A DNA stretch of 63,938 nt from Alphaproteobacteria bacterium (GCA_017444525.1 JAFSWL010000019.1:1-63938), one strand, 5' to 3'; counted from the stretch's first letter, positions 143 to 45,127 are shown. Notes: generated by a model not told the origin, from the sequence alone. Made by a program: numbers and translations.

Positions 143-189
143 GTGACATTTAATTCGCATAAAAAACATCGACATTAAAAAACACGTAT

Positions 190-468
190 AAAAAGCCGTA
201 TAATGAGTCAGATACGACGGAAGTCTGTTTATGCCGTGTACAAAAGAGGTACATAAACAGCGGTGCAGAACATATAAAAATCTGTAGAATGAGGTAAATA
301 CGAAGGGGGATTTTGACGACGTGTACAAAAGAGGTACATAAACAGCGGTGCAGAATATATAAAAATCCGGATAATGAGGTAAATACGCAGTAAGCGGATT
401 GGTGCGGTGTACAATAAGAGGTACATAAGCCAATCCGCTTACAAGTAGTTACCCATTATACGGATTTT
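190..468 (-). repeat. Stop-codon-anchored palindromic element (full copy 361-468) plus two ~85-bp tandem half-copies
   Basis: AAAATCCG..ATAATG..TAC-[stem]-GTGTAC..GTACATAA-[stem]-AAGTAG..CATTATACGGATTTT; abuts TAA of the cyclophilin gene; related copies at four other loci. Confidence 0.9.
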
Positions 469-1074
469 TTAGATGTCGGATATGACGGAAAGGGCAATAA
501 TCTCATCCGGATTTTCAACCATTCCATTGGGTTCGCCGCCTTTTTTAAGCATATCGACATATTCCATACCGGAGGTTACTTCGCCCCAAACCGTGTATTG
601 ACCGTCGAGCCATGGACAATCAGCATAACAGATAAAAAATTGGCTGTCAGCCGAATCCGGCATCATGGCACGCGCCATCGACACGGTACCGCGCTTGTGC
701 GGAGTGCGGTTAAATTCTGCCTTGAGCTTTTTGCCGCTACCGCCGGTGCCATCGCCGCGCGGACATCCTGCCTGCGCCATAAAGCCTTCAATGACTCGAT
801 GAAATTTCAGGCCGTTATAAAAACCCTGTCGCACCAATTCTTTTATTCGAGCCACATGATTAGGAGCAACATCCGGCAGCATTTCTATTATCACATCACC
901 GTATTTTGTTTGCAGTAACAATGCATTTTCCGCATCTTTTACTTTATATGAATGCTTGATTTTTTTGGCTCTGCTTTCGCTCATTGCCAGTTTTTTGGTA
1001 TCTTTATTTTCTAAATTTTTAGTATTAGGTTTAGTTAAATTTTTAGTTTTCAAATTTTCCAATAAATCAGTCAT
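469..1074 (-). CDS. Cyclophilin-type peptidyl-prolyl cis-trans isomerase
   Basis: FYNGLKFHRVIEGFMAQ, SMARA, SADSQFFI, WLDGQYTVWG motifs. Confidence 0.95.
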   Translation of the reverse strand: MTDLLENLKTKNLTKPNTKNLENKDTKKLAMSESRAKKIKHSYKVKDAENALLLQTKYGDVIIEMLPDVAPNHVARIKELVRQGFYNGLKFHRVIEGFMAQAGCPRGDGTGGSGKKLKAEFNRTPHKRGTVSMARAMMPDSADSQFFICYADCPWLDGQYTVWGEVTSGMEYVDMLKKGGEPNGMVENPDEIIALSVISDI

Positions 1075-1115
1075 TTCTACTTCCTTTCTTTTATCTATTA
1101 ATTGTATTTAGGAAG

Positions 1116-2072
1116 TTACATTGCGTTATTCAAGACATAATCCACTCTTTCTTCTGCTGAAAGATTTTGCGGATAATATTTATCTACATTTTTAATAACT
1201 TCTTTTAAACCGCGACCGTTGGCTATTTGAATCGCCAACCCCGGACGAGCATTCAATTCCAGCATCATCGGTCCGCGGAATTTATCCAGCACGATATCTG
1301 CCCCCAAATAGCCGAGGCCGGTCATTTCATAAGCAAGTGCACCAATCATCAGATGTTCGCGCCACATCGGAACTTGCAAAGTCATCAAATCGGCCTCGGT
1401 ATCAGGATGTATGGCAATCGGCAGATTATGCGATACTGCATTAATGGCCTGTCCGGTACGCATATCAAGTCCTACTCCGACCGCCCCTTGGTGCAAATTA
1501 GCGCGCCCATCAGATTCTTTGGTAGCAAGGCGCATCATTGACATAATCGGATAACCCTTATAAACAATCACACGCACATCAGGAATCCCTTGATAACTAA
1601 AATTTTGAAAAGCATCGCTGAAGTGCACCAATTCTTCTATCAAAGCCGTATCATATTGTCCGCCCAAACTGTACAAACCGCTCAAAATGTTGGAAACGTG
1701 CTGATACACTTCGTTAAACCCGAGTTTTTTACCGCTGGCCGTAACAAACTCTTCCCCGCTGAATTGTTTAATTACCAAAACGCCTTTACCTTGACTGCCA
1801 TGTGCCGGCTTAATTACAAACTCGGAGTGTCCTGACACAATTTTAAGCAAATCTTTTACCTCATATTGATGTTCAATCACCCCGATTTTATGCGGAGTAT
1901 TGATATTGATGCGATCCGCCAGCGTTTTGGTCTGCACTTTATCATCCACCAACGGATAGAGCGAACGTTTGTTGTTGCGACCGATGATAAAATAATTTCG
2001 GGCATTCATACCTAAAACACCGTGCTCACGCAACTTCTTCGGATTAGAAAAAATTTTAAAATAATCCCACAT
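1116..2072 (-). CDS. Alpha-L-glutamate ligase-like ATP-grasp protein (RimK-related)
   Basis: GMNARN, LVDDK, FVIKPAHGSQGKG, GRANLHQG, LELNARPGLAIQIAN. Confidence 0.9.
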   Translation of the reverse strand: MWDYFKIFSNPKKLREHGVLGMNARNYFIIGRNNKRSLYPLVDDKVQTKTLADRININTPHKIGVIEHQYEVKDLLKIVSGHSEFVIKPAHGSQGKGVLVIKQFSGEEFVTASGKKLGFNEVYQHVSNILSGLYSLGGQYDTALIEELVHFSDAFQNFSYQGIPDVRVIVYKGYPIMSMMRLATKESDGRANLHQGAVGVGLDMRTGQAINAVSHNLPIAIHPDTEADLMTLQVPMWREHLMIGALAYEMTGLGYLGADIVLDKFRGPMMLELNARPGLAIQIANGRGLKEVIKNVDKYYPQNLSAEERVDYVLNNAM

Positions 2073-3611
2073 TTATTTTTCCTTAATCAGCGGTGCAAAA
2101 CGTTTCAGCTCAACCAGACGATATCCAGTATAAGTACCGAGCTGCATTACCACAATCAAAATAACCAGATTCCATTCATTAAATGCAAACATAACATGGC
2201 GAATATATGTACTGCTTATCACAAAATAAGTCAAAATCGCCACCAATGATGTATTAATGATTTGTTTTGAAGCATTACGCGCACCTTCTTCTTCCCATGT
2301 AATTGAAGCGCGTTCAATAATCCATGCGGTAATAATAATCGGAAAGAATACGGCGGAAGCAGCAATTTTGAAATTATACTGATAGCCTAATATGGTCAGC
2401 AATTGCATAATCAAAATCACAAAAATCACTACTGCGGAAATCCGCGGCACCAAAAGTAGGTTAAGGCGCGTCAACAAAGTGCGAACCAAAAGTCCGAGTA
2501 CAATAATCAGCAAATAACAAATCAACCCAGACCAAAAACCGGTGCGTACCAATGACATAGCCACCAGCATCGGTGTAAAAGTTCCCATAGTCGGAATACC
2601 GACGACGTTTCGCAGCAATACCACCAACAGAATGCCCAGCGGGAAAATCATCAGCCATTTAAGAGTATTCTGTTCCAAAGTAGGCAGATTATAAATTGTA
2701 AAATCAAACATTCTGCTTTGTTCGTATTTTGCGCGACGACCAGCCATCTTAAACGACGAAACCGCCGATTTTATAACAGAAAATCTGATTTCGGAATTAC
2801 GCCCGCCGACAACATCATAAAGCGAAACTCCGCCGCGCTGGAATACTACAAAATTTTTAGGCAAACCGGATGCGCCGTTTTCAATATTATATACCATCCA
2901 TTTACCGTTTTCATAAACTTCAAGCATTAAATCCGCCGGCGTTTCGCGTCTTTTTTCCAATATTTTGATACCGCGGACAATCCGCGCTGCGATTCCCTTA
3001 AAAGAAAGCAGATAAATCATCTTTTCAGCCATAATTCGCTGCGATTTTTTAACCGGCAAAAAAGCGTCTACCTCCGGTTCCAAAACCTCATCATTAAGCA
3101 GTTCGATTATGCGTGTTGCTGACGAACCTTCTTTTTTTTCTTCAGCCAATTTCCAAATTTCTTCAACCATAGCTTTTTGCTGCTCGTTTTCAAATGTAGG
3201 CTTTGTAACTTTTGGTTTATTGCGGTCACGCACCTTACCCACAACATCTTCATTGTCATACAGCATAATACGATAATATATATCTTGTCGATGTTTCTTC
3301 GGTGCCGATTTCATAATCATACGATGGCTTTTTTCATCTTTTTCAACCTTATAACCATTTGCCACCACGTCTTCGCTCAAAATCTTATATTCAGCTCCTA
3401 AACGCGGCGTAGACAGAGATACTTCAATCGGTTCACCGGTCGGCACAAAAGAGATATGCGCGTCAACCGTCCAAATTTCCGTACCCTCGCGCGGGCTGAA
3501 ACTAAATCCCCAATGCTTAATTTTGTAATATGTAGCATAGCTCGCAAAAGCAATTGCAAAAAACAAACAAATTGCTAAAACACCACGAACAGAACAAATT
3601 TTCTTTTTCAT
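2073..3611 (-). CDS. Inactive transglutaminase family membrane protein with 7TM C-terminal domain
   Basis: LRNVVGIPTMGTFTPML, LLLVPRISAV, FFPIIITAWIIER, GTYTGYRLVELKRF; operon context with ATP-grasp ligase. Confidence 0.88.
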   Translation of the reverse strand: MKKKICSVRGVLAICLFFAIAFASYATYYKIKHWGFSFSPREGTEIWTVDAHISFVPTGEPIEVSLSTPRLGAEYKILSEDVVANGYKVEKDEKSHRMIMKSAPKKHRQDIYYRIMLYDNEDVVGKVRDRNKPKVTKPTFENEQQKAMVEEIWKLAEEKKEGSSATRIIELLNDEVLEPEVDAFLPVKKSQRIMAEKMIYLLSFKGIAARIVRGIKILEKRRETPADLMLEVYENGKWMVYNIENGASGLPKNFVVFQRGGVSLYDVVGGRNSEIRFSVIKSAVSSFKMAGRRAKYEQSRMFDFTIYNLPTLEQNTLKWLMIFPLGILLVVLLRNVVGIPTMGTFTPMLVAMSLVRTGFWSGLICYLLIIVLGLLVRTLLTRLNLLLVPRISAVVIFVILIMQLLTILGYQYNFKIAASAVFFPIIITAWIIERASITWEEEGARNASKQIINTSLVAILTYFVISSTYIRHVMFAFNEWNLVILIVVMQLGTYTGYRLVELKRFAPLIKEK

Positions 3612-3633
3612 CTCAAAGTCCTTATGTTTGATT

Positions 3634-4167
3634 TTATTTCAGCGTGTTTGAAATAGAAACATCAACAATGGCGCGTCCACTCAGAATATTGCGTCCGATT
3701 AATCCCTGATATTCAAAATCATGACGTTCATTCAATGTAAATTCGGCAACAAACATTTCCTTACCCATTTTTACATCCATGCTTACGGTTACGCGATGTT
3801 CTTCCTCGCCTGTACGTTTAATCTTAACTCGCCGCACCAACGGCTTTTCAAAATCCAATTTTTCGTTAGTATCGCGATTAACCAGCGTAAACGACACCCA
3901 TTTTTGACCATCTCGTTCAAAACGCTTAATATTGTCGGCATCAACGGAAGAAGTTGTCGCTCCTGTATCAATACGAGCCAAAAAAGGCGACTTCATCGGC
4001 GGAAAATATATCCGCTCCACCGCACCAATTACATTATCCGGTCTCACGGTTATAATTTTTGCCGGCTGAGCCGTACTTGGTACAATCCCCGGCACCACTT
4101 TTTCTTCTTTAGTCGCGCACGCTGCCAATAAAAGTACGCATAAACAAGCTGAAATTTTTTGCATAGT
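3634..4167 (-). CDS. RimK-associated aspartyl-type protease (so-called ATP-dependent Zn protease family), lipoprotein
   Basis: ARIDTGATTSS, FTLNER, LIGRNIL; lipobox LLAAC; start set at MQKIS. Confidence 0.85.
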   Translation of the reverse strand, partial: TMQKISACLCVLLLAACATKEEKVVPGIVPSTAQPAKIITVRPDNVIGAVERIYFPPMKSPFLARIDTGATTSSVDADNIKRFERDGQKWVSFTLVNRDTNEKLDFEKPLVRRVKIKRTGEEEHRVTVSMDVKMGKEMFVAEFTLNERHDFEYQGLIGRNILSGRAIVDVSISNTLK

Positions 4168-4274
4168 TTCTACCATCCTGTTCTTAAACAAATATATTTA
4201 TGTATCTATCACAAACCCAAAAAAAAGAGCAAAAAAAAACGACTTATGCACATAAGCCGCTTTTATAGCATCAG

Positions 4275-5417
4275 CTAAAAATATACATTAAATCGTAGGG
4301 ACACCACTGTTGCATAATCCGACTTATAATTCAGTGCCGGATTAACATATAGCTGAATATCCGGAGTAAGCGCGGCCCATTTAGATATTCCCCAAGTCCA
4401 ATACGCCTCCCATACCTGTTCTCCGGTTTCAGCCAAAGGGGTCCCCACCGCTGTTTCGTTTATATTGTTATATGCATACGCAGCTCCGATTTGATCAAGC
4501 GAATTGCGTTCAAACGGGTTGTTATAAACGACTCCTGCCGTATATGAATTTTTGATTGTGGCAACATTGCCGTTGACACCGTTGATTCTCCCAAATACCG
4601 CCCACTTTTGCCCGATATTCTGCTGCATATTAAATGACCAACCGGTTGTTGATTGCGGCTGTTCCGACACATACGGCTGATTATATACCAATATTGAATA
4701 TTGTCCAACGCCCAAACCTTTTATTGTCGGATTGTACCCCACTTGACCAAATGTGGTATAATGCCCATCATGCAAATGATTCAAACGGACACTTACCGCC
4801 GAAATATTAGTTGCGTCTTGTAAACCAGCAACAAATTGCCAATTATTTGGCATAGCCTGAACATAAGCTCCGACACCGGCATCAGTGTAGGTCGCACTAC
4901 CGTTTTGCGATAAAGCATAGTTGATAAAATTGCCTTGTGGATTGTTATTATAATCAGTTCCATCAAAATTATATATTGTATATTGTCCTAAACCGAGCGT
5001 CATCCAATTATACTGTTGTGGTAATTGATAGGTATAATATAATGTTGAAAATTCTTGCTCTTCATCGTCCGCATCATTAATCGGCGTAACAACATTTATA
5101 CGATTTTCGATATCTGCAGCATCATGATTTGCATAAAAAACACTGGAGTAAGAAGCATTAAGTATGCCGGTTCCGTAATGATTATCAAAAGTTGTCCATG
5201 CAATGCTGGGATTAAGATAAGATTGCACCGAGTTATAGCGTCCGTTCGGCGAACCATGTTGAGCCAATACCGAATAATCGATATCATAATCAAATCCGTA
5301 ATTTTTACTCAATTTATTCTTAAAAGCGGTATAATCGCCTCCCAATGTTGCCGCCTGAACTACCGACAACGTACTTAACAAACATGCCAAAGTTCCGAAA
5401 AATAAACTTTTTTGCAT
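4275..5417 (-). CDS. Carbohydrate-selective porin, OprB-like
   Basis: Signal peptide; EQVWEAYW, LTPDIQLYVNPA; C-terminal Phe. Confidence 0.75.
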   Translation of the reverse strand: MQKSLFFGTLACLLSTLSVVQAATLGGDYTAFKNKLSKNYGFDYDIDYSVLAQHGSPNGRYNSVQSYLNPSIAWTTFDNHYGTGILNASYSSVFYANHDAADIENRINVVTPINDADDEEQEFSTLYYTYQLPQQYNWMTLGLGQYTIYNFDGTDYNNNPQGNFINYALSQNGSATYTDAGVGAYVQAMPNNWQFVAGLQDATNISAVSVRLNHLHDGHYTTFGQVGYNPTIKGLGVGQYSILVYNQPYVSEQPQSTTGWSFNMQQNIGQKWAVFGRINGVNGNVATIKNSYTAGVVYNNPFERNSLDQIGAAYAYNNINETAVGTPLAETGEQVWEAYWTWGISKWAALTPDIQLYVNPALNYKSDYATVVSLRFNVYF

Positions 5418-5497
5418 AACTCATCTCCCGAATGTTATAAACACACGGTTGATATATATCCTGTTTATCGAAAAAAAAGAGGTAAGTTCTTATAAAT

Positions 5498-5926
5498 TTA
5501 TCTGCGCAAAGCTTTTACGTATGCCTGAACGGAATGCTCATCACAATAAGTTTGCCCGCTACGCACTTTTTTGCCGCAAAAACAAAAATCATCATCACGC
5601 GGATCTCCAATCGGCCAACGACAGGTATGACTATCTAAATCAACCAACTTGATATTGGAGTTTTCGTTTTTATCCGCTGTTTTGGACTTTTCATCTGCAC
5701 TCTCGACAACATCAACCTCTGAGGCCGATAACGGTAATTTCGGCGCAGTTTGAACAGCAGATTCTTTAGGTTTAATCGGCGAAGGGCGAGCTGTCAGACA
5801 CAACCGATGCACCTTACCGACAATAGCATTTTTAGTTACCCCTAATTTCTTGGCAATTTCGTTTGCCGTCAATCCTTGTGCCCATAATTCCCGCAGTTTA
5901 TTCACGCTTTCATCTGTCCAACCCAT
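5498..5926 (-). CDS. gcrA: Cell-cycle regulator GcrA
   Basis: WTDE..L.ELWAQG, KNAIVGKVHRL, CRWPIGDP, YCDEH. Confidence 0.92.
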   Translation of the reverse strand: MGWTDESVNKLRELWAQGLTANEIAKKLGVTKNAIVGKVHRLCLTARPSPIKPKESAVQTAPKLPLSASEVDVVESADEKSKTADKNENSNIKLVDLDSHTCRWPIGDPRDDDFCFCGKKVRSGQTYCDEHSVQAYVKALRR

Positions 5927-6047
5927 AGTAAACCTCCAGTAAATTTATTATGTTATAGCGGATTATTTTGCCTCTGTCCAGACTAAATTTTATTCTTTAT
6001 TAATTTTTTTAGACTACAATTATCTAGTCTGTTTTGAGGAGAATACA

Positions 6048-7292
6048 ATGAAATTTTTTTATCTTGTTTTGACTCTGCTTATCAGTTTACCGGTACAAGC
6101 ACAGCTAAACCAATATAACAAGCTTCACACTGTTGACTTGGATGAAGAAATTCCGCCTTTACAACCTTTGCAACGAGAATACGATAAAGCTACCTCCCGC
6201 TACCGATGGAACTATGATTTCCGCTGGAATATGCCGAGTTTATTCAATTCAGAATTTAAAAAACAGATTACCGACTTCGGTATCATAGAAAAGCGTATTG
6301 CCAACGCCGATGAAGAATGGCTGTTACGAGAATTAAAAAAATTGCCTAAACAGATGTATCAGTATATTGGACCTCTTCTGCATACCAAACGCGGACTTTC
6401 CGGCAAAATTCTTGATTTACCTGGAATTAAAGAAACCAAACATAAATTTCCGACACAAGTCGCTTCTCCTTTTCGCAATATGCCTAATCTCGAATTTGCT
6501 TCTCCGGCAATGTATTTATATTTAAATCCGCTTATATGGGGAGAAGATATGGCTTCTCTGGAAATTCCGCAAGAAGTTGAAAATCCTAAAAAAAAACGAC
6601 CGCGTATGCGTATAAATCCGAATTTTTTGCATAAAATCAAAAGCCGAATAAAAGCAACAGATTATGCTTCAACCCCAAGCACTAAGCCTGTTGAATTGGA
6701 TTTGCGACACTTCAATCCGACCGTATCAACTCCGCTATCCAAAGCCGATGTCAGAGCTTTTATACGAACATTTGGCGCACTTGATAAGTTCCGCCGTCAT
6801 AATAATAATGAAATCCGGCTGATTATGATTGATTCATTGATAAATTATTGGGATACTAAAAATGGCATACCGGAAAATATTTTATTGTTTCGCCAAATCG
6901 TTAATCCGTGTCAACACTATGTCCGGAAAATTCGTTGGCTCAATTTACAAAACGAATTTCAAACAGCTATCGGCACACAAGGATTCGGAATAAAAGATTG
7001 GGCCTATACCTGCGATAAAATAATCAAGGCGCATCGCGTACATAATGCACCGTCCGGTATGATTTGGGGAGCACGTCAACAAAAAAGAAATGCCCTCTAT
7101 CCGGCAATGGAACCGTTTTTAATCTCAGCTGAAGAAAAACAGCAAATGCACTTTTTGTTGGACTCCTACGCTCGTATGTATTCTACCCGTTTGCGAGATA
7201 TAGAAGCCATTAAACCATACAACAACACCTTGCGCCACAAATTTCTGAATTTTGGAAAACATATAGGCGGAATCCCACTGGTATTCCCATAG
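6048..7292 (+). CDS. Hypothetical secreted protein
   Basis: 414-aa ORF, GAGGAG RBS, signal peptide ending VQA; no family recognised. Confidence 0.7.
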   Translation: MKFFYLVLTLLISLPVQAQLNQYNKLHTVDLDEEIPPLQPLQREYDKATSRYRWNYDFRWNMPSLFNSEFKKQITDFGIIEKRIANADEEWLLRELKKLPKQMYQYIGPLLHTKRGLSGKILDLPGIKETKHKFPTQVASPFRNMPNLEFASPAMYLYLNPLIWGEDMASLEIPQEVENPKKKRPRMRINPNFLHKIKSRIKATDYASTPSTKPVELDLRHFNPTVSTPLSKADVRAFIRTFGALDKFRRHNNNEIRLIMIDSLINYWDTKNGIPENILLFRQIVNPCQHYVRKIRWLNLQNEFQTAIGTQGFGIKDWAYTCDKIIKAHRVHNAPSGMIWGARQQKRNALYPAMEPFLISAEEKQQMHFLLDSYARMYSTRLRDIEAIKPYNNTLRHKFLNFGKHIGGIPLVFP

Positions 7293-7328
7293 ACCACTAA
7301 GATGCAGAAGAAAGATAATCTGCCGGCT

Positions 7329-7678
7329 AAAAATCCGGATAATGCGGTAAATACGAAGGGGTTTTTCGACGACGTGTACAACAAAAGGTACATAAACCAA
7401 CAGGCACGAACTTGCTAAAAATCCGGATAATGCGGTAAATACGAAGGGATTTTTTTCGACGTGTACACAAACAGTACACGAGAAAATGCTCTTATAGCGG
7501 CTAAAAATTTAGAGAATAAGTCAGATACAAAGAAGGATTTTTTCGCCGTGTACAATAAATTATACGGCAAATAAAAACTCGAAGAATTAGGTTAATACGA
7601 AGGGGATTTTTTTCGACGTGTACACAAACAGTACACGAGAAAAAAATCCCCAAGTAGTAACCAATTATACGAGTTTTT
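7329..7678 (-). repeat. Stop-codon-anchored palindromic element (full copy 7573-7678) plus three tandem half-copies
   Basis: Inner stem GGGGATTTTTTTC/GAAAAAAATCCCC; overlaps the fabG TAA. Confidence 0.9.
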
Positions 7679-8414
7679 AAATCATGGCCATCCCGCCGTT
7701 AACGTGAATAGTCTGTCCCGTAATGTATTGCGCTTCATCGGATGCTAAAAATGCAACAGCGTTGGCAATATCTTGAGCCTCTCCAAGCTTGCCTTCTGGG
7801 ATTTTAGCCAAAAGAGCAGCTTTAACGTCATCAGGAAGAACATCTGTCATCGGCGTACGAATAAAGCCCGGAGCGATTGAATTAACGGTAACACCGCGAG
7901 AGCCTACTTCTTGAGCCAAGCATTTATTCATGGCAATCATGCCGGCTTTGGAAGCAGAATAGTTGGCCTGCCCTGCATTCCCCATTACACCAACAACGGA
8001 AGCCATACCGATAATACGTCCGTAGCGGCGCTTCATCATACCGCGAACCACGGCACGAGCCAATTTGAAACCTGCGGTAAGATTAACATCTAAAACAAAC
8101 TGCCATTTTTCATCACTCATACGCATAAACAAATCATCTCGCGTAACACCGGCATTATTAACCAAAATATCGATTTTGCCAAATTTTTCTTCAACGGCTT
8201 CCACCAAGGATTTTATAGCCTCTGTATCGCCCAAATTAGCCACAAAATATTCGACGTGATCACCGAGCTCGTCCTTAAGAGCCTTCAGGCCCTCTTCATT
8301 CATATCGGTCAGAGCCAAATAAGCCCCTTGTTCATGCAAAGTATGAGCGATTCTACGACCGATACCGCCGGCGGCACCGGTAATCAAAGCAACTTTTTCA
8401 TCTAATTTAAACAT
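7677..8414 (-). CDS. fabG: 3-oxoacyl-ACP reductase
   Basis: TGAAGGIG, NNAGVTRD, NYSASKAG, APGFIRTPMT. Confidence 0.96.
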   Translation of the reverse strand: MFKLDEKVALITGAAGGIGRRIAHTLHEQGAYLALTDMNEEGLKALKDELGDHVEYFVANLGDTEAIKSLVEAVEEKFGKIDILVNNAGVTRDDLFMRMSDEKWQFVLDVNLTAGFKLARAVVRGMMKRRYGRIIGMASVVGVMGNAGQANYSASKAGMIAMNKCLAQEVGSRGVTVNSIAPGFIRTPMTDVLPDDVKAALLAKIPEGKLGEAQDIANAVAFLASDEAQYITGQTIHVNGGMAMI

Positions 8415-13772: not shown

Positions 13773-14102
13773 TTGGGCAAGAAAGTTGCCTTTATATTGC
13801 TAGGATTATTACCGGAATTGGGATACTTGAATAGACGGGAAATTGCTGCTCTTTGCGGTGTTGCACCTTTTGCTAAAGACAGCGGAATAATAAACGGTTA
13901 CAGACGAACTCAGAACGGAAGAATTGAGGTTAAGAAAGCATTGTTTATAGCAGCATTGGCGGCTGTTAAATTTGATTCTAAATATAAACCTGTTTATGAA
14001 AGTTTGCTTGAACGTGCCAAACCTAAAATGGTTGCTATTACTGCTATTATGCGTAAGTTAATCATTTACCTGAATGTTAAATCTAAAACTCTTTGTGAAT
14101 AA
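13773..14102 (+). pseudogene. IS110-family transposase C-terminal fragment
   Basis: LPELGYLNRREIAALCGVAPFAKDSG, GRIEVKKALF, KPKMVAITAIMRKL; N-terminal RuvC-like DEDD domain absent. Confidence 0.85.
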
Positions 14103-15235: not shown

Positions 15236-15490
15236 TCAAAGATTTTCAATAATGATCTTGCAGAACGTGATATATACACCGAAGGCTTCTCTGCGATATT
15301 TGGGTGCGAATACGATATGGTATTTACAACTCCACGTCGTGTGTGCTAATGTGTATGTGGTCATTTTAAAACCTCCTTTATATTATTTTGTTACTCAGTG
15401 GTCAGACTGTCTAACTCATTATATAAAGGAGGTTTTATGATGTAAAGCTATAAGCTTTCCGGAACCCCCAGACTATCTGGGGGTTTTCTT
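15236..15490 (-). mobile_element. tnpA: IS200 left-end remnant with truncated tnpA (ORF 15364-15236)
   Basis: Terminal hairpin AACCCCCAGA-TAG-TCTGGGGGTT, anti-SD/SD inverted repeat, ORF MTTYTLAHTTWSCKYHIVFAPKYRREAF (IS200 TnpA N-terminus). Confidence 0.85.
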
Positions 15491-15504
15491 TTTACAAAAA
15501 AAAC

Positions 15505-16108: not shown

Positions 16109-16116
16109 GCTTTGCA

Positions 16117-16414
16117 AAAAAATAGAATTAGGCTAATAGAAAAAGGGTTTTTCCCGCAGTGTACAACCAATCAGCAATGATTTCGCAGAACGTGATATAT
16201 ACGCCGAAGGCTTCTCTGCGCTGTGCAAATTGCACAGTCCCAAAAAACTCTTTTAATGAGGTTAATACGAAGAAAGTTTCCTCGCGCGGTGTACAACACC
16301 ACCCCACAAAAAAACTCATAGAATTAGGCTAATAGAAAAAGGTTTTCTCCCGCGGTGTACAAAGTAGTACATAAGGGAAAAAACCTTTGATAGTAGCCAA
16401 TTATATGAGTTTTT
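16117..16414 (-). repeat. Stop-codon-anchored palindromic element (full copy ~16310-16414) plus two degenerate half-copies
   Basis: Inner stem AAAGGTTTTCTCCC/GGGAAAAAACCTTT; directly follows the rpsD TAG-TAA. Confidence 0.85.
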
Positions 16415-16415
16415 A

Positions 16416-17030
16416 CTATCTGGAGTAGTATTCGATAACCAAATTCGGCTCCATAACCGCCGCGTACGGAACATCTTCAAACTTCGGCACAAAAGTATAA
16501 GTAGCCTTTAACTTTTTGGTATCAACTTCCAAATAAGTCGGGCATTCGCGAGTTTGTGATTCGATTGCATTCAAAACAATGTTCAAACTCTTGGATTTTT
16601 CGCGAACTTCGATAACATCACCGACCTTAACCATATAAGACGGAATGTTTACCTTTTTGCCGTTAACGGTAACATGCCCATGGTTTACAAACTGACGAGC
16701 CGCAAATACGGTCGGAACAAATTTAGCTTTATAAACCAAATTATCCAAACGAGATTCCAACAAACCGATTAAGTTTTCGGCGGCATCACCCGAACGACGA
16801 ATAGCTTCGGCATAATATTTTCCGAATTGCTTTTCAGAAATATTACCGTAATAAACTTTCATCTTTTGCTTAGCAATCAATTGTTGACCATAGTCGGTAA
16901 CTTTTGCTTTTCTCTGACCATGTTGTCCAGGGCGATAGCTTCTTTTGTTAAACGGGCTGTTATTATCACCCCAAAGATTGTCGCCATAGCTACGGCTGAG
17001 TTTTTTCTTTGCAGAAACGATACTTTTCAT
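16416..17030 (-). CDS. rpsD: 30S ribosomal protein S4
   Basis: [32 protein letters not shown]. Confidence 0.97.
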
Positions 17031-29861: not shown

Positions 29862-30064
29862 ACACGAGTCATATAGCATGCCTTTTTTTAAAAATCCAGT
29901 AAAAAACGTATTTTATGCTTAAATTAATCATTAAAATAATGATAACATATTGTTTTTACGAAAATTAATTACACATAAAAATTAATTAAAATGCAGTCTA
30001 TTCATAAAATATTTTATGTAAAAATTCCATCTTGATATTTTTAAAAGAAGCTTTATATTAATAA

Positions 30065-30361
30065 GCGTCAGGAAACTGACTGTGACACCAGAGACCTTAT
30101 GAAATAGATGCGTCGGACCCGAGGGCAGTACTCGGCACCTCCACCATTTATGGGGGTGAAACAGGATTGACGGTGTATAGTAAAGATATGTGTTGTGTCC
30201 GGTGAGATACCACCGTTATCGGTTCAAATTAAATAAACGCAAATGATAATTTTGCACCTGTTGCCATCGCTGCGTAATGCGGCAAACGCAACAAACTTCA
30301 ATTCTTTAAGCTTTGGTTAGCATAAAGTGGGGCTGAGCCACCTAGCAACAGAACGGCTCGC
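30065..30361 (+). ncRNA. ssrA: Two-piece (permuted) tmRNA; tag ANDNFAPVAIAA
   Basis: Acceptor piece ends CACCTCCACCA at 30146; GGGGGTG restarts at 30152 (G3-U pair); GGCAGTA T-loop; tag ORF 30239-30277; outer ends approximate. Confidence 0.93.
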
Positions 30362-30383
30362 TTGTTTTTGGGTAGAGGAAAAA

Positions 30384-40915: not shown

Positions 40916-40942
40916 ACGAATATAAACCTGTATATTTTTTAT

Positions 40943-41048
40943 AAAATGCGATTAATGAGTCAAATACGCAGTTACCCTTTTTGCGCGGTGCACAAAAGAG
41001 GTACATAAGCAAAAAGGGCAACAAGTAGATGACCATTATACGGATTTT
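40943..41048 (-). repeat. Stop-codon-anchored palindromic element (single copy)
   Basis: Inner stem GTTACCCTTTTTGC/GCAAAAAGGGCAAC; overlaps the ileS TAA. Confidence 0.88.
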
Positions 41049-44000
41049 AAGCACATTTCTGAGCGTCATAAAGGACAGATATTCCTTCAATTTCTCCCTC
41101 AGTGCCGCCGGCGCAATCGGAAACAACCTTAATCGCCAAAACCTGATCGGCAATATAAGACTGATTTTCCTGCAAAGCCTTAGCCAATTCCGCATCAGCA
41201 GTGGAATAGTTGAGTTCGATACGGTCAGAAATATTGAAATCCTTATCCTTACGCAAAGTCTGTACCAAGCGCACGAAATCGCGAGCCATACCCTCACGTT
41301 TAAGTTCGTCGGTAACATTTGTATCAAGTGTCAAAACCGCTTTATTGTCGGCGAAAGATTGTCCGGCTACACCGTCTTTCATATCAAGGCGAACTTCAAA
41401 CAAATTGCTGGCCAGAACTTTGCCGCCGATAGACAATGTGCCATCGCTGTTCAATACCCAATTACCCTGCTTATAGGCAGCCATAACCGCGCCCATATCT
41501 TTACCCAATGTTTTACCCAAAAGCGGAGTATATAGATATACGCTCTTGGTTGCATAATTGCTCAAGTTATCATCAAAACGAACTTCTTTGACATTCAGCT
41601 CGTCTTTAACAATTTCCTGATACTCCGAAGAAAGCGATGCTCCGATAACCGTCATACTGGCAAGCGGCAGACGATTGCGCAGATTTTTTTCTTCACGGAT
41701 AAATTTGCCGGTTGAACACAAATCTTGAACAAAGTCCATTTCCGACATCAATTTTTCATCCGATTTAATAGCGTTTAAAGTCGGGTAATCGCATAGGTGT
41801 ACGGATTCTCCGCCGGTCAGATTCTTATATATGTATTCTGCAATAAATGGCATAACCGGCGCCGTCAGCTTTGCAACATTGACGAGCACGGTGTAAAGCG
41901 TATCAAAAGCCTGTGCATCACCGCGCCAAAAGCGCTCGCGAGTACGACGGATGTACCAGTTATTCAAAATTTCCATAAATGCGGCTGTTTCACTGCAAAC
42001 TTCGGCAATATCATACGTTTCAAAGCCGTGTTTTAATTTTTCACCAAGTGTTTTAAGTTTGGATAAAATATAATTATCCATCGCCTCGCTTGAAGCGGAA
42101 ATTTCCTTCGCTTTATAATCTTCTGCATTGGCATAAAGAGTAAAGAAGTAAAAAGCATTCCACAGCGGAATCATTGCCAAACGCGAAGCCTTGGCTATTT
42201 CCTTACCTTCTTTGTCAACAGCAACATTACCACCCTTCAACACCGGCGAAGAAACCAAGAACCAACGCAATGCCTCCGAACCGACGGTTTCCAGAATTTC
42301 ATTCGGATCCGGATAGTTTTTCAGGCGTTTGGAAAGTTTTTGCCCACCCTCAGCCATCAGCAAACCGGTGCAAATACAGTTTTTGAATGCCGGACGATTA
42401 TGCAAAGCAGTAGATAATACTGTCAAAGTATAGAACCAACCGCGGGTTTGGTCGATTGCTTCCACAATAAAATCCGCCGGAAAATGGTTTTCAAACCATT
42501 CTTTATTCTCAAACGGATAGTGCACTTGTGCATACGGCATCGAGCCGGATTCAAACCAACAATCAAAAACATCGCTGACCCGACGCATCATAGTTTTACC
42601 GGACGGATCATCCGGATTCGGATATACAACATCGTCAATATACGGCTTATGCAAATTTTCCACCGTTACGCCGGTTGCCGCCTTAATTTCATCCAGTGAA
42701 CCAAACACGTCAATACGCGGAAACTTCGGATTATCAGACTTCCAAACCGGAATCGGCGTACCCCAGAAACGATTGCGTGAAATCGACCAATCGCGTGCAC
42801 CCTCCAGCCATTTACCGAAACGACCGTCCTTTATATGCCCCGGAATCCAGTTGATTTGCTGATTATTAGCAACCATTTCGTCACGAAAATCGGTAACTTT
42901 AACAAACCATGAACTCATCGCCTTATAAATCAGCGGTGTATCGGTGCGCCAGCAATATGGATATGTGTGTGTATATTGCTCCTTTTTTACTAACAATCCG
43001 TTTGCCTTGAGCCATTGCATAATCGGCTCATTGGTGTCAAATACCTGTTGTCCGGCATAATCGGCAACTTCACTCGTAAATTTACCGGCTTCATCCACCG
43101 GACATACCACTGGAAAATTCTCATCATAAGCGCGGCAAGCCTCAAAGTCATCCTGACCGAAGCCAGGAGCAATATGCACCACGCCGGTACCGTCTTCGGT
43201 TGATACAAACTCACCGGAAAGTATTTTGAACGCGCCTTGTTCTTTCAGGTGCTTAAAATACGGGAACATCGGCTCATAACTCAAACCGAGCAAATCAGCT
43301 CCTTTAATGGTTTTAACCTGTGTTGCGTGTTCCAGTTGTTTTTTATAACTACCCAAACGCGCCACGGCGATAATATACTGTTGTCCATCTTCTTCCATTA
43401 CTGCATAGTCAATATCTTTGCCCACCGCTAACATTAAGTTGGAAGGTAACGTCCACGGCGTAGTGGTCCATACCAAAATTTTCTGCCCCGTTTCAAGTTT
43501 AAACATCACCGTTATGGCATTATCAGTCTTATCACGATAACCAAGATTCACCTCAAAGTTGGAAAGCGGAGTTTCCGCCGCCCACGAATACGGCAAAACG
43601 CGATAATCTTCATAAACCAAACCCTTGTCATACAGCGCCTTAAAGTTATGAATAACCGATTCCATAAACGACAGGTTCATTGTCTTATAATCGTGATTAA
43701 AGTCCACCCAACGCCCGATGCGTTTGAACATATCTACCCAAATACCGGAATATTTCAACACGTCTTTGCGGCAAAAATCATTAAACTTTTCTACACCGTA
43801 GGCTTCAATTTGTTTGCGCCCCGAAACTCCGAGTTGCTTTTCGGCAGACATTTCCGCCGGCAAACCATGACAATCCCAACCTAACCGGCGTTCCACTTTT
43901 TTGCCGTTCATAGTCTGAAAACGCGCCACAACATCTTTGACATAGCTTACCATAATGTGTCCGTAGTGCGGCGTTCCGTTGGCAAACGGCGGTCCGTCAT

Positions 44001-44139
44001 AAAACACAAACTCAGCGGCACCGTCACGATTGTGTACGGATTTTTCAAATGTATTATCTTCGTCCCAGAACTTTAAGACTTCTTTTTCCAGTTCGACAAA
44101 GTCCGGCTTTGCCTTTACTTCAGCATAGTATTTCGTCAT
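41047..44139 (-). CDS. ileS: Isoleucyl-tRNA synthetase, type 2
   Basis: DGPPFANGTPHYGH, GWDCHGLP, WTTTPWTLPSN, DQTRGWFY, KLSKR; type-2 C-terminus without Zn finger. Confidence 0.97.
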   Translation of the reverse strand: MTKYYAEVKAKPDFVELEKEVLKFWDEDNTFEKSVHNRDGAAEFVFYDGPPFANGTPHYGHIMVSYVKDVVARFQTMNGKKVERRLGWDCHGLPAEMSAEKQLGVSGRKQIEAYGVEKFNDFCRKDVLKYSGIWVDMFKRIGRWVDFNHDYKTMNLSFMESVIHNFKALYDKGLVYEDYRVLPYSWAAETPLSNFEVNLGYRDKTDNAITVMFKLETGQKILVWTTTPWTLPSNLMLAVGKDIDYAVMEEDGQQYIIAVARLGSYKKQLEHATQVKTIKGADLLGLSYEPMFPYFKHLKEQGAFKILSGEFVSTEDGTGVVHIAPGFGQDDFEACRAYDENFPVVCPVDEAGKFTSEVADYAGQQVFDTNEPIMQWLKANGLLVKKEQYTHTYPYCWRTDTPLIYKAMSSWFVKVTDFRDEMVANNQQINWIPGHIKDGRFGKWLEGARDWSISRNRFWGTPIPVWKSDNPKFPRIDVFGSLDEIKAATGVTVENLHKPYIDDVVYPNPDDPSGKTMMRRVSDVFDCWFESGSMPYAQVHYPFENKEWFENHFPADFIVEAIDQTRGWFYTLTVLSTALHNRPAFKNCICTGLLMAEGGQKLSKRLKNYPDPNEILETVGSEALRWFLVSSPVLKGGNVAVDKEGKEIAKASRLAMIPLWNAFYFFTLYANAEDYKAKEISASSEAMDNYILSKLKTLGEKLKHGFETYDIAEVCSETAAFMEILNNWYIRRTRERFWRGDAQAFDTLYTVLVNVAKLTAPVMPFIAEYIYKNLTGGESVHLCDYPTLNAIKSDEKLMSEMDFVQDLCSTGKFIREEKNLRNRLPLASMTVIGASLSSEYQEIVKDELNVKEVRFDDNLSNYATKSVYLYTPLLGKTLGKDMGAVMAAYKQGNWVLNSDGTLSIGGKVLASNLFEVRLDMKDGVAGQSFADNKAVLTLDTNVTDELKREGMARDFVRLVQTLRKDKDFNISDRIELNYSTADAELAKALQENQSYIADQVLAIKVVSDCAGGTEGEIEGISVLYDAQKCA

Positions 44140-44369: not shown

Positions 44370-44586
44370 ACAGCGGTGCATAACGTATAAAAAACCGTAG
44401 AATGCGGTAAATACGACGGAAGTCTGTTTATGCCGTGTACAAAAGAGGTACATAAAAAGCAGTGCTGCAGAACATATAAAAATCCGGATAATGAGTCAGA
44501 TACGAAGTTGCCCTTTTTGCGCGGTGTACAACAAAGGTACATAAGCAAAAAGGGCAACAAGTAGATGACCATTATACGGATTTTTT
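44370..44586 (-). repeat. Stop-codon-anchored palindromic element (full copy ~44478-44586) plus one half-copy
   Basis: Inner stem GTTGCCCTTTTTGC/GCAAAAAGGGCAAC; overlaps the nusG TAA; half-copy shares 46 identical bp with 212-257. Confidence 0.9.
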
Positions 44587-45127
44587 AAGATTTTTCGACT
44601 TGAGAAAATTCCAACTCCACCGGCGTATCGCGACCGAAAATAGATACCGATACTTTTAAACGCATTTTTTCGGTATCAACTTCTTCAACCACACCAACAA
44701 ATGATTCAAATGGACCGTCGGTTACTCTGATTTGTTCACCAATATCATAAGTTGCACCGGAAACAGGACGCTCTGCGCTTTCTTCAACCTGCTTGCGGAT
44801 TTTTTCGACTTCTGCCTCACTAATCGGTTGCGGTTTATTACGACTGCCCAAAAAGCCACTGACACGCGGAGTATTTTTCACAACCAACCAAGTTTCGTCG
44901 GAAAGTTCCATTTTTACCAGAATATAACCAGGGAAAAACTTATGAGCGACATCCTTACGCTTTTTACCCTCAGCATCTTTTCTTTCTTTAGGTTCTTGTT
45001 CCATCGGTACCCAAACTTCCTGAATACGATCTTCCATATTTTTAAGTTTAGCCTGTTCAGTCAGAGACTCAGCCACTTTTTTCTCCGAACCGGAATATAC
45101 ATTAATAACATACCAACGAGCTGCCAT
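44585..45127 (-). CDS. nusG: Transcription termination/antitermination factor NusG
   Basis: WYVINVYSGSE, FFPGYILV, DGPFESF, IFGRDTPVEL. Confidence 0.97.
   Translation of the reverse strand: MAARWYVINVYSGSEKKVAESLTEQAKLKNMEDRIQEVWVPMEQEPKERKDAEGKKRKDVAHKFFPGYILVKMELSDETWLVVKNTPRVSGFLGSRNKPQPISEAEVEKIRKQVEESAERPVSGATYDIGEQIRVTDGPFESFVGVVEEVDTEKMRLKVSVSIFGRDTPVELEFSQVEKS

Follow-up and report, generated by a model that had tools for sequence, protein, structure and literature searches.

Palindromic repeats that abut stop codons and carry polar arrays of half copies in a lineage of uncultured Alphaproteobacteria

Several bacterial groups carry imperfect palindromes of 100-150 nt that form long hairpins and are co-transcribed with their neighbours, namely, Correia/NEMIS in Neisseria, ERIC/IRU, the Rickettsia RPE and the pneumococcal BOX, the last of which is modular and consists of A-Bn-C modules. 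Bacterial interspersed mosaic elements (BIMEs) are arrays in which the orientation of the units alternates. For the repetitive extragenic palindromes (REPs), published work covers REP surveys (PMC12306157), the mRNA stabilisation or termination with which REPs are credited (PMC12306157, PMC3733652), the stalling of ribosomes by REPs located within 15 nt of a stop codon (PMC12306157) and GTAG- and CGTC-tagged REPs together with the REP-associated tyrosine transposases (RAYTs), transposase genes and repeat families being uncorrelated (PMC3733652). Here, we describe a family of palindromic repeats in a 63,938-nt stretch of DNA from an alphaproteobacterium (JAFSWL010000019.1; referred to as the window), the full copies of which abut stop codons and are preceded, on the side away from the gene, by arrays of left-half copies. 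We regard this repeat family, with its unusual polar decay arrays, as new; a full-text search of the literature returned no title or abstract opening on the repeats of this lineage or on one-sided half-palindrome arrays.

The window is contig C46 of genome G000 (1.58 Mb, 40% G+C, 50 contigs, 86% complete). We observed five full imperfect palindromes of ~105-110 nt in it, four of which bear one to three left-half units on their gene-distal side (Table 1). A half unit comprises the left outer arm, one variable arm and the apex. The coordinates of units are read on the + strand, and the strand giving the element's left-to-right reading is called the L-to-R strand. The apex pattern GTGTACA-N4-12-GTACAY occurred nine times in the window, always on the + strand, compared to 0.01 occurrences expected from shuffles, and the strict pattern occurred 36 times genome-wide. 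Searching G000 with a left-half profile at an E-value of 0.03 or better yielded 45 units (18 full and 27 half), and a nineteenth, divergent full copy is located on contig C17. An earlier reading of the window from its sequence alone (the original prediction) had placed two half units at a cyclophilin gene, three at a FabG-like gene and one at nusG, and we recovered all of these where it had placed them. At the remaining array (16111-16306), the degenerate halves that it had described were also present, although they numbered three and not two.

The element resembles the REPs and BIMEs of enterobacteria and pseudomonads in being a dispersed extragenic palindrome of transcribed 3' regions that is clustered in arrays and often lies near stops. 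A possible counterpart of the GTAG (or CGTC) tag, which in REPs stands at one end of the palindrome (PMC3733652), is CAAGTAG, located at the 3' foot of the inner stem with a conservation of 90% or more; this sequence is internal to the element and on the side opposite to the REP convention, its GTAG lying 3' of the inner palindrome on the strand that reads GTAG. Unlike REPs, with their units of 20-40 bp, the element is three times longer and combines a modular outer arm, a variable stem and an invariant apex. Unlike in BIMEs, all units of an array point one way and most of them are half copies, and unlike in REPs accompanied by a RAYT, there is no link to a Y1 or RAYT gene. Presence or absence at orthologous sites and a modular or mosaic make-up are features in common with Correia/NEMIS, ERIC/IRU, RPE and BOX as these are generally described. 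From these repeats, which are of the type of miniature inverted-repeat transposable elements (MITEs), the element differs by having no demonstrated target duplication or parent insertion sequence (IS), by its strict stop-codon abutment and fixed orientation to the gene and to the G-rich strand, and by its arrays, in which one-sided halves are joined by just one full copy, located next to the gene. As in an intrinsic terminator, a strong hairpin with a U-run behind it is predicted directly downstream of the open reading frame (ORF), in the gene-sense orientation. In contrast to such a terminator, the element has a ~45-bp stem with conserved internal loops and belongs to a mobile or paralogous family, some subfamilies have no U-run, and an ordinary terminator is often still found distal to the array. 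Finally, unlike in a CRISPR-like or small-RNA array, arms are reused between loci and between species, and in full copies they are self-complementary; they had no foreign match.

The arrays are polar, as had been claimed, with the full copy always last, next to the gene. This was seen in a census of 120 unique arrays over all loci, of which nine were cut by the end of the locus and counted apart. Writing F for a full palindrome copy and h for a left-half unit, in the order from distal to gene-proximal, the complete arrays comprised 26 F, 34 hF, 22 hhF, 9 hhhF, 5 hhhhF, 1 hhhhhF and 14 with half units only; the cut arrays comprised 3 F, 1 hF, 1 hhF, 1 hhhF and 3 with half units only. The units of every array share one orientation, and no full copy upstream of another unit was detected by profile among the 120 arrays. 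Inspection by eye showed that one locus, L089, consists of two full copies in tandem that were missed by the right-arm profile. Right-arm matches lacking a left arm numbered 0 of 19 in G000 and 1 of 110 over all loci, compared to 142 unique left-only units over all loci. The nested insertion invoked in the original prediction is not compatible with this count, since the displaced right halves are missing. Moreover, the left-profile score drops with distance from the gene (51.5, 42.0, 42.8, 37.7, 35.8 and 14.4 bits). Unit boundaries vary from array to array, with 1-59 nt between the apex of a half unit and the start of the next unit. As a separate observation, the apex of one decayed half (16174-16239) is mutated to TGTGCAAATTGCACA, and the small palindrome is still perfect.

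The position of the full copies relative to genes is remarkably constant. An opposite-strand ORF ended within 80 nt of the full copy in 82 of the 84 unique copies with enough flank; 78 of these ORF ends were within 15 nt and 70 within -3 to +5 nt of the element. The stop codons at the 82 ends were TAA in 65 cases, TAG in 13 and TGA in 4, and at most junctions a TAA was merged with the A-run of the element. In G000, the right end of the full copy met the stop codon of the other-strand ORF at all 18 loci first examined. The element holds stops in all three frames, and a few ORFs end inside it. The L-to-R strand was C-rich around 19 of 19 loci of G000, and the host genes are therefore on the G-rich strand in all 19; as a baseline, the G-rich strand of this genome carries 615 of the 1016 long ORFs, giving a probability of ~7e-5 if the loci are independent. 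Host genes include those for EF-Tu, DnaK, ribosomal proteins S1, L1, L10 and S4, NusG, IleRS, PFOR, an OmpA-family protein and FadL, and many of them are core housekeeping genes. At the 3' end of ileS in the relative G007 (L230), the gene has lost its own stop; its frame runs five codons into the element and terminates at a TAA within the right outer arm.

The anatomy of a copy was defined in the window and in a structural alignment (A1) of 90 unique full copies from many genomes, in which full units are 105-113 nt long. On the + strand, a full copy starts with an A-run bearing an outermost stem of 5-8 bp, followed by the conserved outer arm (..GGAKAATGMGGTAAATACG), a variable stem of 13-16 bp and the apex (GTGTAC-loop-GTACAY), itself a mini-hairpin of 6 bp. 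After the apex, the copy continues with the complement of the variable arm, followed by the conserved right outer arm (CAAGTAGTTACCCATTATACGG) and a T-run. Compensatory double changes were found for 27 of the 35 predicted consensus pairs; the outermost 5-8 bp covary, as does the variable inner stem, and there is little or no variation in the apex and in ATACG/CAAGTAG. The two outer arms are not exactly complementary, the same bulge and mismatches being present in nearly all copies. Full copies are therefore not made afresh by copying a half, and snap-back synthesis from halves was ruled out on this ground.

When read on the gene-sense strand, the copy at 358-470 is predicted to fold at -49.9 kcal/mol (z -9.5) into a hairpin with U5AUAU behind it. 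In the alignment, conservation of the T-run columns is 90% or higher, and the A-run opposite the T-run gives the full copy the shape of a two-way terminator. Apart from the 6-bp apex stem, the folds predicted for the half-unit stretch did not include any helix lying within a single unit. Of the 90 full copies, 71 give the more stable RNA fold on the L-to-R strand, and the G-U counts were 93 versus 108; neither fold energies nor G-U counts show which strand, if any, acts as RNA. No Rfam family was found for the element in a gathering scan of the window or in an E-value scan of 150-520.

We then compared orthologous loci in relatives of G000. Units occupied 12 of the 30 cyclophilin loci, 8 of the 24 nusG loci and 9 of the 25 rpsD loci compared. 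Orthologous sites that are empty bear ordinary small terminator hairpins, and filled sites retain such a hairpin distal to the array. With T1, T2 and so on denoting arm types, the nusG array reads [T1h][T5F] in G000 and [T1h][T1h][T5h][T5h][T6F] in G007, which has the same left flank and 99% protein identity to G000 at this locus; it reads [T3h][T3h][T5F] in G017 and [T3h][T6h][T3F] in G001. At rpsD, we observed [Ta F] alone in G007, [Ta h][Tc F] in G008, [Ta h][Tb F] in G005 and [Ta h][Tc h][Tb h][Ta F] in G000, the flank in G007 being the same. Every half type of the G000 rpsD array thus has a counterpart among relatives, where it is the full copy next to the gene at this locus (G007/G017/G003 for one type, G008 for another and G005 for the third). 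Similarly, at the cyclophilin locus, a copy of type T2, the type of the second half unit in G000, is the full gene-proximal copy in G017 and G047, and a truncated half in G001 is the copy that is full in G000, with an identical apex loop. G047 and G000 share identical outer arms around different inner cassettes at this locus.

The sequences between units point to local duplication as one source of the halves. The linker at nusG, and that at fabG of G001, duplicates the sequence flanking the array itself on the left; such a half therefore arose when a stretch reaching from the flank to beyond the apex was duplicated in tandem. The junctions are located at A-runs or other short homologies and vary between arrays; in the fabG array of G005, five 98-nt units are cut within the right outer arm. 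In the window, the first cyclophilin half (187-272) continues after its apex with 8 nt of its own right arm and then the linker CGGTGCAGAACA, and the third FabG half (7500-7569) is cut within the apex and retains a scrap of right outer arm, ATTATACGG. The linker CAGCGGTGCA had been reported to recur at the cyclophilin and nusG loci, which it does (258, 343 and 44371), and it is also found at two unrelated places (2088 and 33683). A reading of the linker as a sigma-54 promoter (GGCAC-N-TTGC) was discarded, since the GG-to-GC spacing is one base short and the motif varies. Within the variable arm of some half units, at L202 and L203 (the rpsD arrays of G001 and G017), L003 and L081, we noted a second small insert, ..GTCCTTCGCT..CTCACGACGC..TTCAGC.., which looks like another repeat family nested in the first.

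Among 77 unique pairs of adjacent units, 21 share the same arm type, consistent with local duplication, and 56 have different arms. In 19 of these 56 pairs, the half keeps the start of its own right arm and is thus a relic of a full copy; in 11 pairs it carries the start of the next unit's right arm, indicating exchange at the apex, and four pairs tie. A rule that the post-apex stretch of a half always matches the next full copy was rejected, being true only in a minority of cases. An apex exchange in [Xh][Y full] predicts exactly [Xh][Yh with X's post-apex][Y full], and this arrangement was seen on contig C13 and at 187-357. Indeed, the second cyclophilin half (273-357) is a mosaic, because it has a T2 arm but its post-apex stretch and linker are identical to those of the first.

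Exchange also took place between distant loci. Among 564 inter-locus pairs in G000, 21 combine outer arms that are at least 90% identical with cassettes that are less than 65% identical, compared to four with the reverse pattern, and only four are alike in both. The identity between 212-257 and 44411-44456 extends over exactly 46 bp, as had been stated, without extension on either side, and this core sits within diverged flanks. Taken together, the mosaic counts and the identical core argue for exchange between copies, and the claim that variable arms are shared between loci was borne out, with the arms being exchanged as cassettes. The arm at 302-326, which had been likened to those of the fabG array, matched 7355-7379 at 22 of 25 positions and 7599-7623 at 21 of 25, and it matches a full copy on contig C41 at 21 of 22. 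The ileS copy (40939-41048) is a chimera, because its outermost stems are mismatched (left ATGCG versus right CGGAT). Simple local slippage of the adjacent copy, the explanation that the original prediction had set against its own, holds in part, as shown by the 21 same-arm pairs and the flank-copied linkers.

We favour, with a probability of roughly 0.55, the reading that the family consists of REP/MITE-like, terminator-shaped repeats whose distal left halves are by-products of instability and not functional units. The full copy has a putative role as a terminator or stabiliser, and only the gene-proximal copy would be kept as a complete hairpin. An array might begin when the segment that starts in the left flank and ends a few bases beyond the apex is duplicated in tandem, with junctions at A-runs or other short homologies, which would create the linker. 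Unequal exchange between the invariant apexes could then multiply and reshuffle the units. Short-patch conversion or copy-choice between paralogous copies, anchored in the conserved outer arm and apex, would move variable cassettes between loci and leave the replaced gene-proximal copy behind as a decaying half. The polarity may be due to selection for an intact hairpin by the gene, to strand-specific slippage as the fork passes the centre of the hairpin, or to both; the strict strand association would fit strand-specific slippage after synthesis passes the apex.

Several observations weigh against this reading. At nusG of G007, the gene-proximal copy was replaced by T6 along with both outermost stems, which homologous conversion between paralogues cannot do; such whole-copy replacement requires either a true insertion, an allelic transfer from one strain to another or copy-choice at microhomologies. 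Recombination alone also leaves the base-precise abutment of stop codons unexplained. Some subfamilies, such as the rpsD copy of G008, have no T-run, so that not every copy is terminator-like. The strand signal is confounded with gene orientation and expression level (GC skew), 22 of the 56 different-arm junctions were too short or degenerate to assign, and the right-arm profile overlooks divergent copies, the tandem at L089 having been scored as two halves. Finally, Logan contigs break inside the arrays at 142-357 and 7355-7614, leaving two arrays of the window unbridged by independent contigs, and the number and order of units there thus rest on the original assembler.

Stop-codon precision and whole-copy replacement keep a true insertion mechanism alive as a rival. 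According to this explanation, an active non-autonomous transposon, i.e., a MITE, targets either the end of a gene at its stop codon or a resident copy at its gene-proximal end, and the older copy is pushed outward and loses its right half. This would fit the very precise position at stop codons, the presence or absence at orthologous cyclophilin, nusG and rpsD sites, the whole copies with their own matched outermost stems that turn up in the gene-proximal slot, the one tandem of two full copies and the ends, which commonly read TAAAAA...TTTTTA. Terminal inverted repeats are present as well, in that the outer arms pair and the outermost base pairs covary. A target-site duplication could not be demonstrated; the ends often read TA-AAAA...TTTT-TA, and no clean filled/empty pair with both flanks conserved was found at the cyclophilin, nusG and rpsD loci. 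Moreover, no longer element with these ends was seen, the left-arm profile matches in G000 (E of 0.03 or lower) being all arrays or solitary copies, although in a genome that is 86% complete the absence of a parent autonomous element is not proven. Y1_Tnp (PF01797) was detected in 14 of 41 genomes of the genus and was absent or fragmentary in the element-rich G001, G003, G007, G008, G015 and G017; RAYT or IS200 as a mobiliser was ruled out on this distribution, and the Y1 gene of G000 is of an ordinary IS200-like kind and is accompanied by a hairpin unrelated to the element. A link to the IS110 family was dropped too, as no element copies lie beside the transposase fragment at 13773-14102 (+) (Transposase_20, E 3e-9), where depth is raised ~5-fold, or beside one apparently intact copy on contig C4. 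Nested insertion on its own is excluded by the near absence of orphan right arms, and flank-copying linkers and same-arm neighbours need local duplication anyway. On balance, we consider transposition unlikely. Enzyme-free spread appears more doubtful still: hairpin-stalled replication would switch template at A/T runs, copy the entire terminator hairpin of another locus onto a stop codon and re-anneal in the resident copy. The target would then be a leading-strand, highly expressed gene, and the array would be a record, oldest at the gene-distal end, of the terminators used. The RNA-templated copying raised in the original prediction received no support, with no RVT_1 match in the 86%-complete G000.

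It is very unlikely that the arrays are in part assembly artefacts caused by short-read collapse or by mis-joining of dispersed copies. Such errors would be in line with the Logan contig breaks within 142-357 and 7355-7614, where depth is 2-3 times that of the neighbourhood, and with one array that is split over two contig ends (C32 and C33). In contrast, the array at 16.1-16.4 kb is bridged by single Logan contigs in four samples of one study, similar arrays were found at the same loci in relatives, independently obtained genomes of other species agree in architecture and share flanks and junctions, and all 120 unique arrays obey the same polarity rule. We find it hardly more credible, and if anything less so, that the half-unit arrays are functional, each unit yielding a small RNA with a variable segment, or an antisense RNA to the 3' end of the neighbouring gene, and the outer arm holding a -10-like box. 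Conserved and variable segments do alternate regularly, a -10-like hexamer (GATAAT, GAGAAT or TAGAAT) is found in the outer arm of most units, and the L-to-R strand is the more stable RNA fold in most full copies. However, promoter-like matches were not above the level of shuffles (30 versus 24.4 +/- 4.7) in a promoter/terminator scan that is blind to 45-bp interrupted stems, G-U counts gave no strand signal, and the half-unit folds lack a unit-confined helix other than the apex stem. The units also decay away from the gene, and their boundaries differ between arrays. The ORFs ending at arrays in G000, and the left neighbours scanned in the window, were housekeeping genes or had no Pfam match and included no processing gene, in a search that was not aimed at cas families. 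The processed small RNAs with variable segments that had been envisaged likewise fit poorly with a small set of arms that is reused across loci and species, is self-complementary in full copies and has no phage or plasmid match. The original prediction thus stands in part: its polarity and shared arms hold, and its nested insertion, RNA templating and small RNAs are not supported.

The repeat family is restricted to one bacterial family and enriched in one genus. A query copy had matches in 15 of the 18 other genomes searched within the genus and in none of 12 genomes that represented different families of the class. In an order-level draw, 7 of 8 genomes of the genus were matched, compared to few matches in four other genera of the same family (1/21, 2/8, 2/4 and 2/2) and none in the remaining genera or in the single genome of another family. 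A pattern scan that took one genome from each species gave mainly uncultured Alphaproteobacteria of the gut and rumen. The family therefore adds a well-populated group of modular palindromic repeats in this uncultured lineage, with the uncommon regularities of base-precise stop abutment, exclusive association with one strand and half-copy arrays that preserve earlier states of a locus. It offers a natural system for the movement of terminator-like hairpins, cassette exchange between dispersed repeats and asymmetric decay of palindromes. In practical terms, short-read assemblies are broken at the arrays, and at least one relative has an essential gene whose final codons and stop are now supplied by the element.

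Table 1. Repeat units, full palindromes and genes located in the window
Feature	Position	Strand	Remark
Cyclophilin array, left-half unit 1	187-272	+	outer arm, variable arm GACGGAAGTCTGTTTAT (type T1), apex
Cyclophilin array, left-half unit 2	273-357	+	arm GGGGGATTTTGAC (type T2)
Full imperfect palindrome, cyclophilin locus	358-470	+	arm type T3, GTAAGCGGATTGG / CCAATCCGCTTAC
Cyclophilin-type peptidyl-prolyl isomerase gene	469-1074	-	TAA stop merged with the element's A/T run
FabG array, three left-half units	7326-7413, 7414-7499, 7500-7569	+	before full copy
Full palindrome, FabG locus	7570-7677	+	arm GGGGATTTTTTTCG
FabG-like short-chain dehydrogenase gene	7677-8414	-	terminates at element
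rpsD array, three degenerate left-half units	16111-16173, 16174-16239, 16240-16306	+	
Full palindrome, rpsD locus	16307-16415	+	immediately after rpsD TAG stop
Ribosomal protein S4 gene (rpsD)	16416-17030	-	
Two-piece (permuted) alpha-type transfer-messenger RNA gene	30028-30362	+	218.7 bits
Solitary full palindrome after ileS	40939-41048	+	no halves
Isoleucyl-tRNA synthetase gene (ileS)	41047-44139	-	
nusG array, left-half unit	44386-44474	+	type T1 + linker
Full palindrome, nusG locus	44475-44585	+	type T5, GTTGCCCTTTTTGC / GCAAAAAGGGCAAC
nusG gene	44585-45127	-	

In Holosporaceae/Holosporales and in one other alphaproteobacterial metagenome-assembled genome, we observed an imperfect palindrome of ~150 nt with terminal inverted repeats, in many copies and often at contig ends (L069, L077, L100, L107, L114, L121, L066, L090 and L044). 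It has the apex GTGTACA-N-GGTACAT and the preceding ATACGGAG in common with the element and differs in its terminal repeats, TAGACTTCTTTCGAAAC. The profile similarity to the G000 units was weak (best E 0.23, not significant), so that homology between the two is not established.

Elsewhere in the window, the Rfam family STnc490 matched 15375-15485 (-) with 66.8 bits, above the gathering score. The surrounding stretch (15281-15502) showed a ~7-fold raised contig depth and contig breaks and is probably the end of a multi-copy mobile element; STnc490 RNA is presumably linked to IS200. G000 also carries a permuted transfer-messenger RNA of the alpha type.

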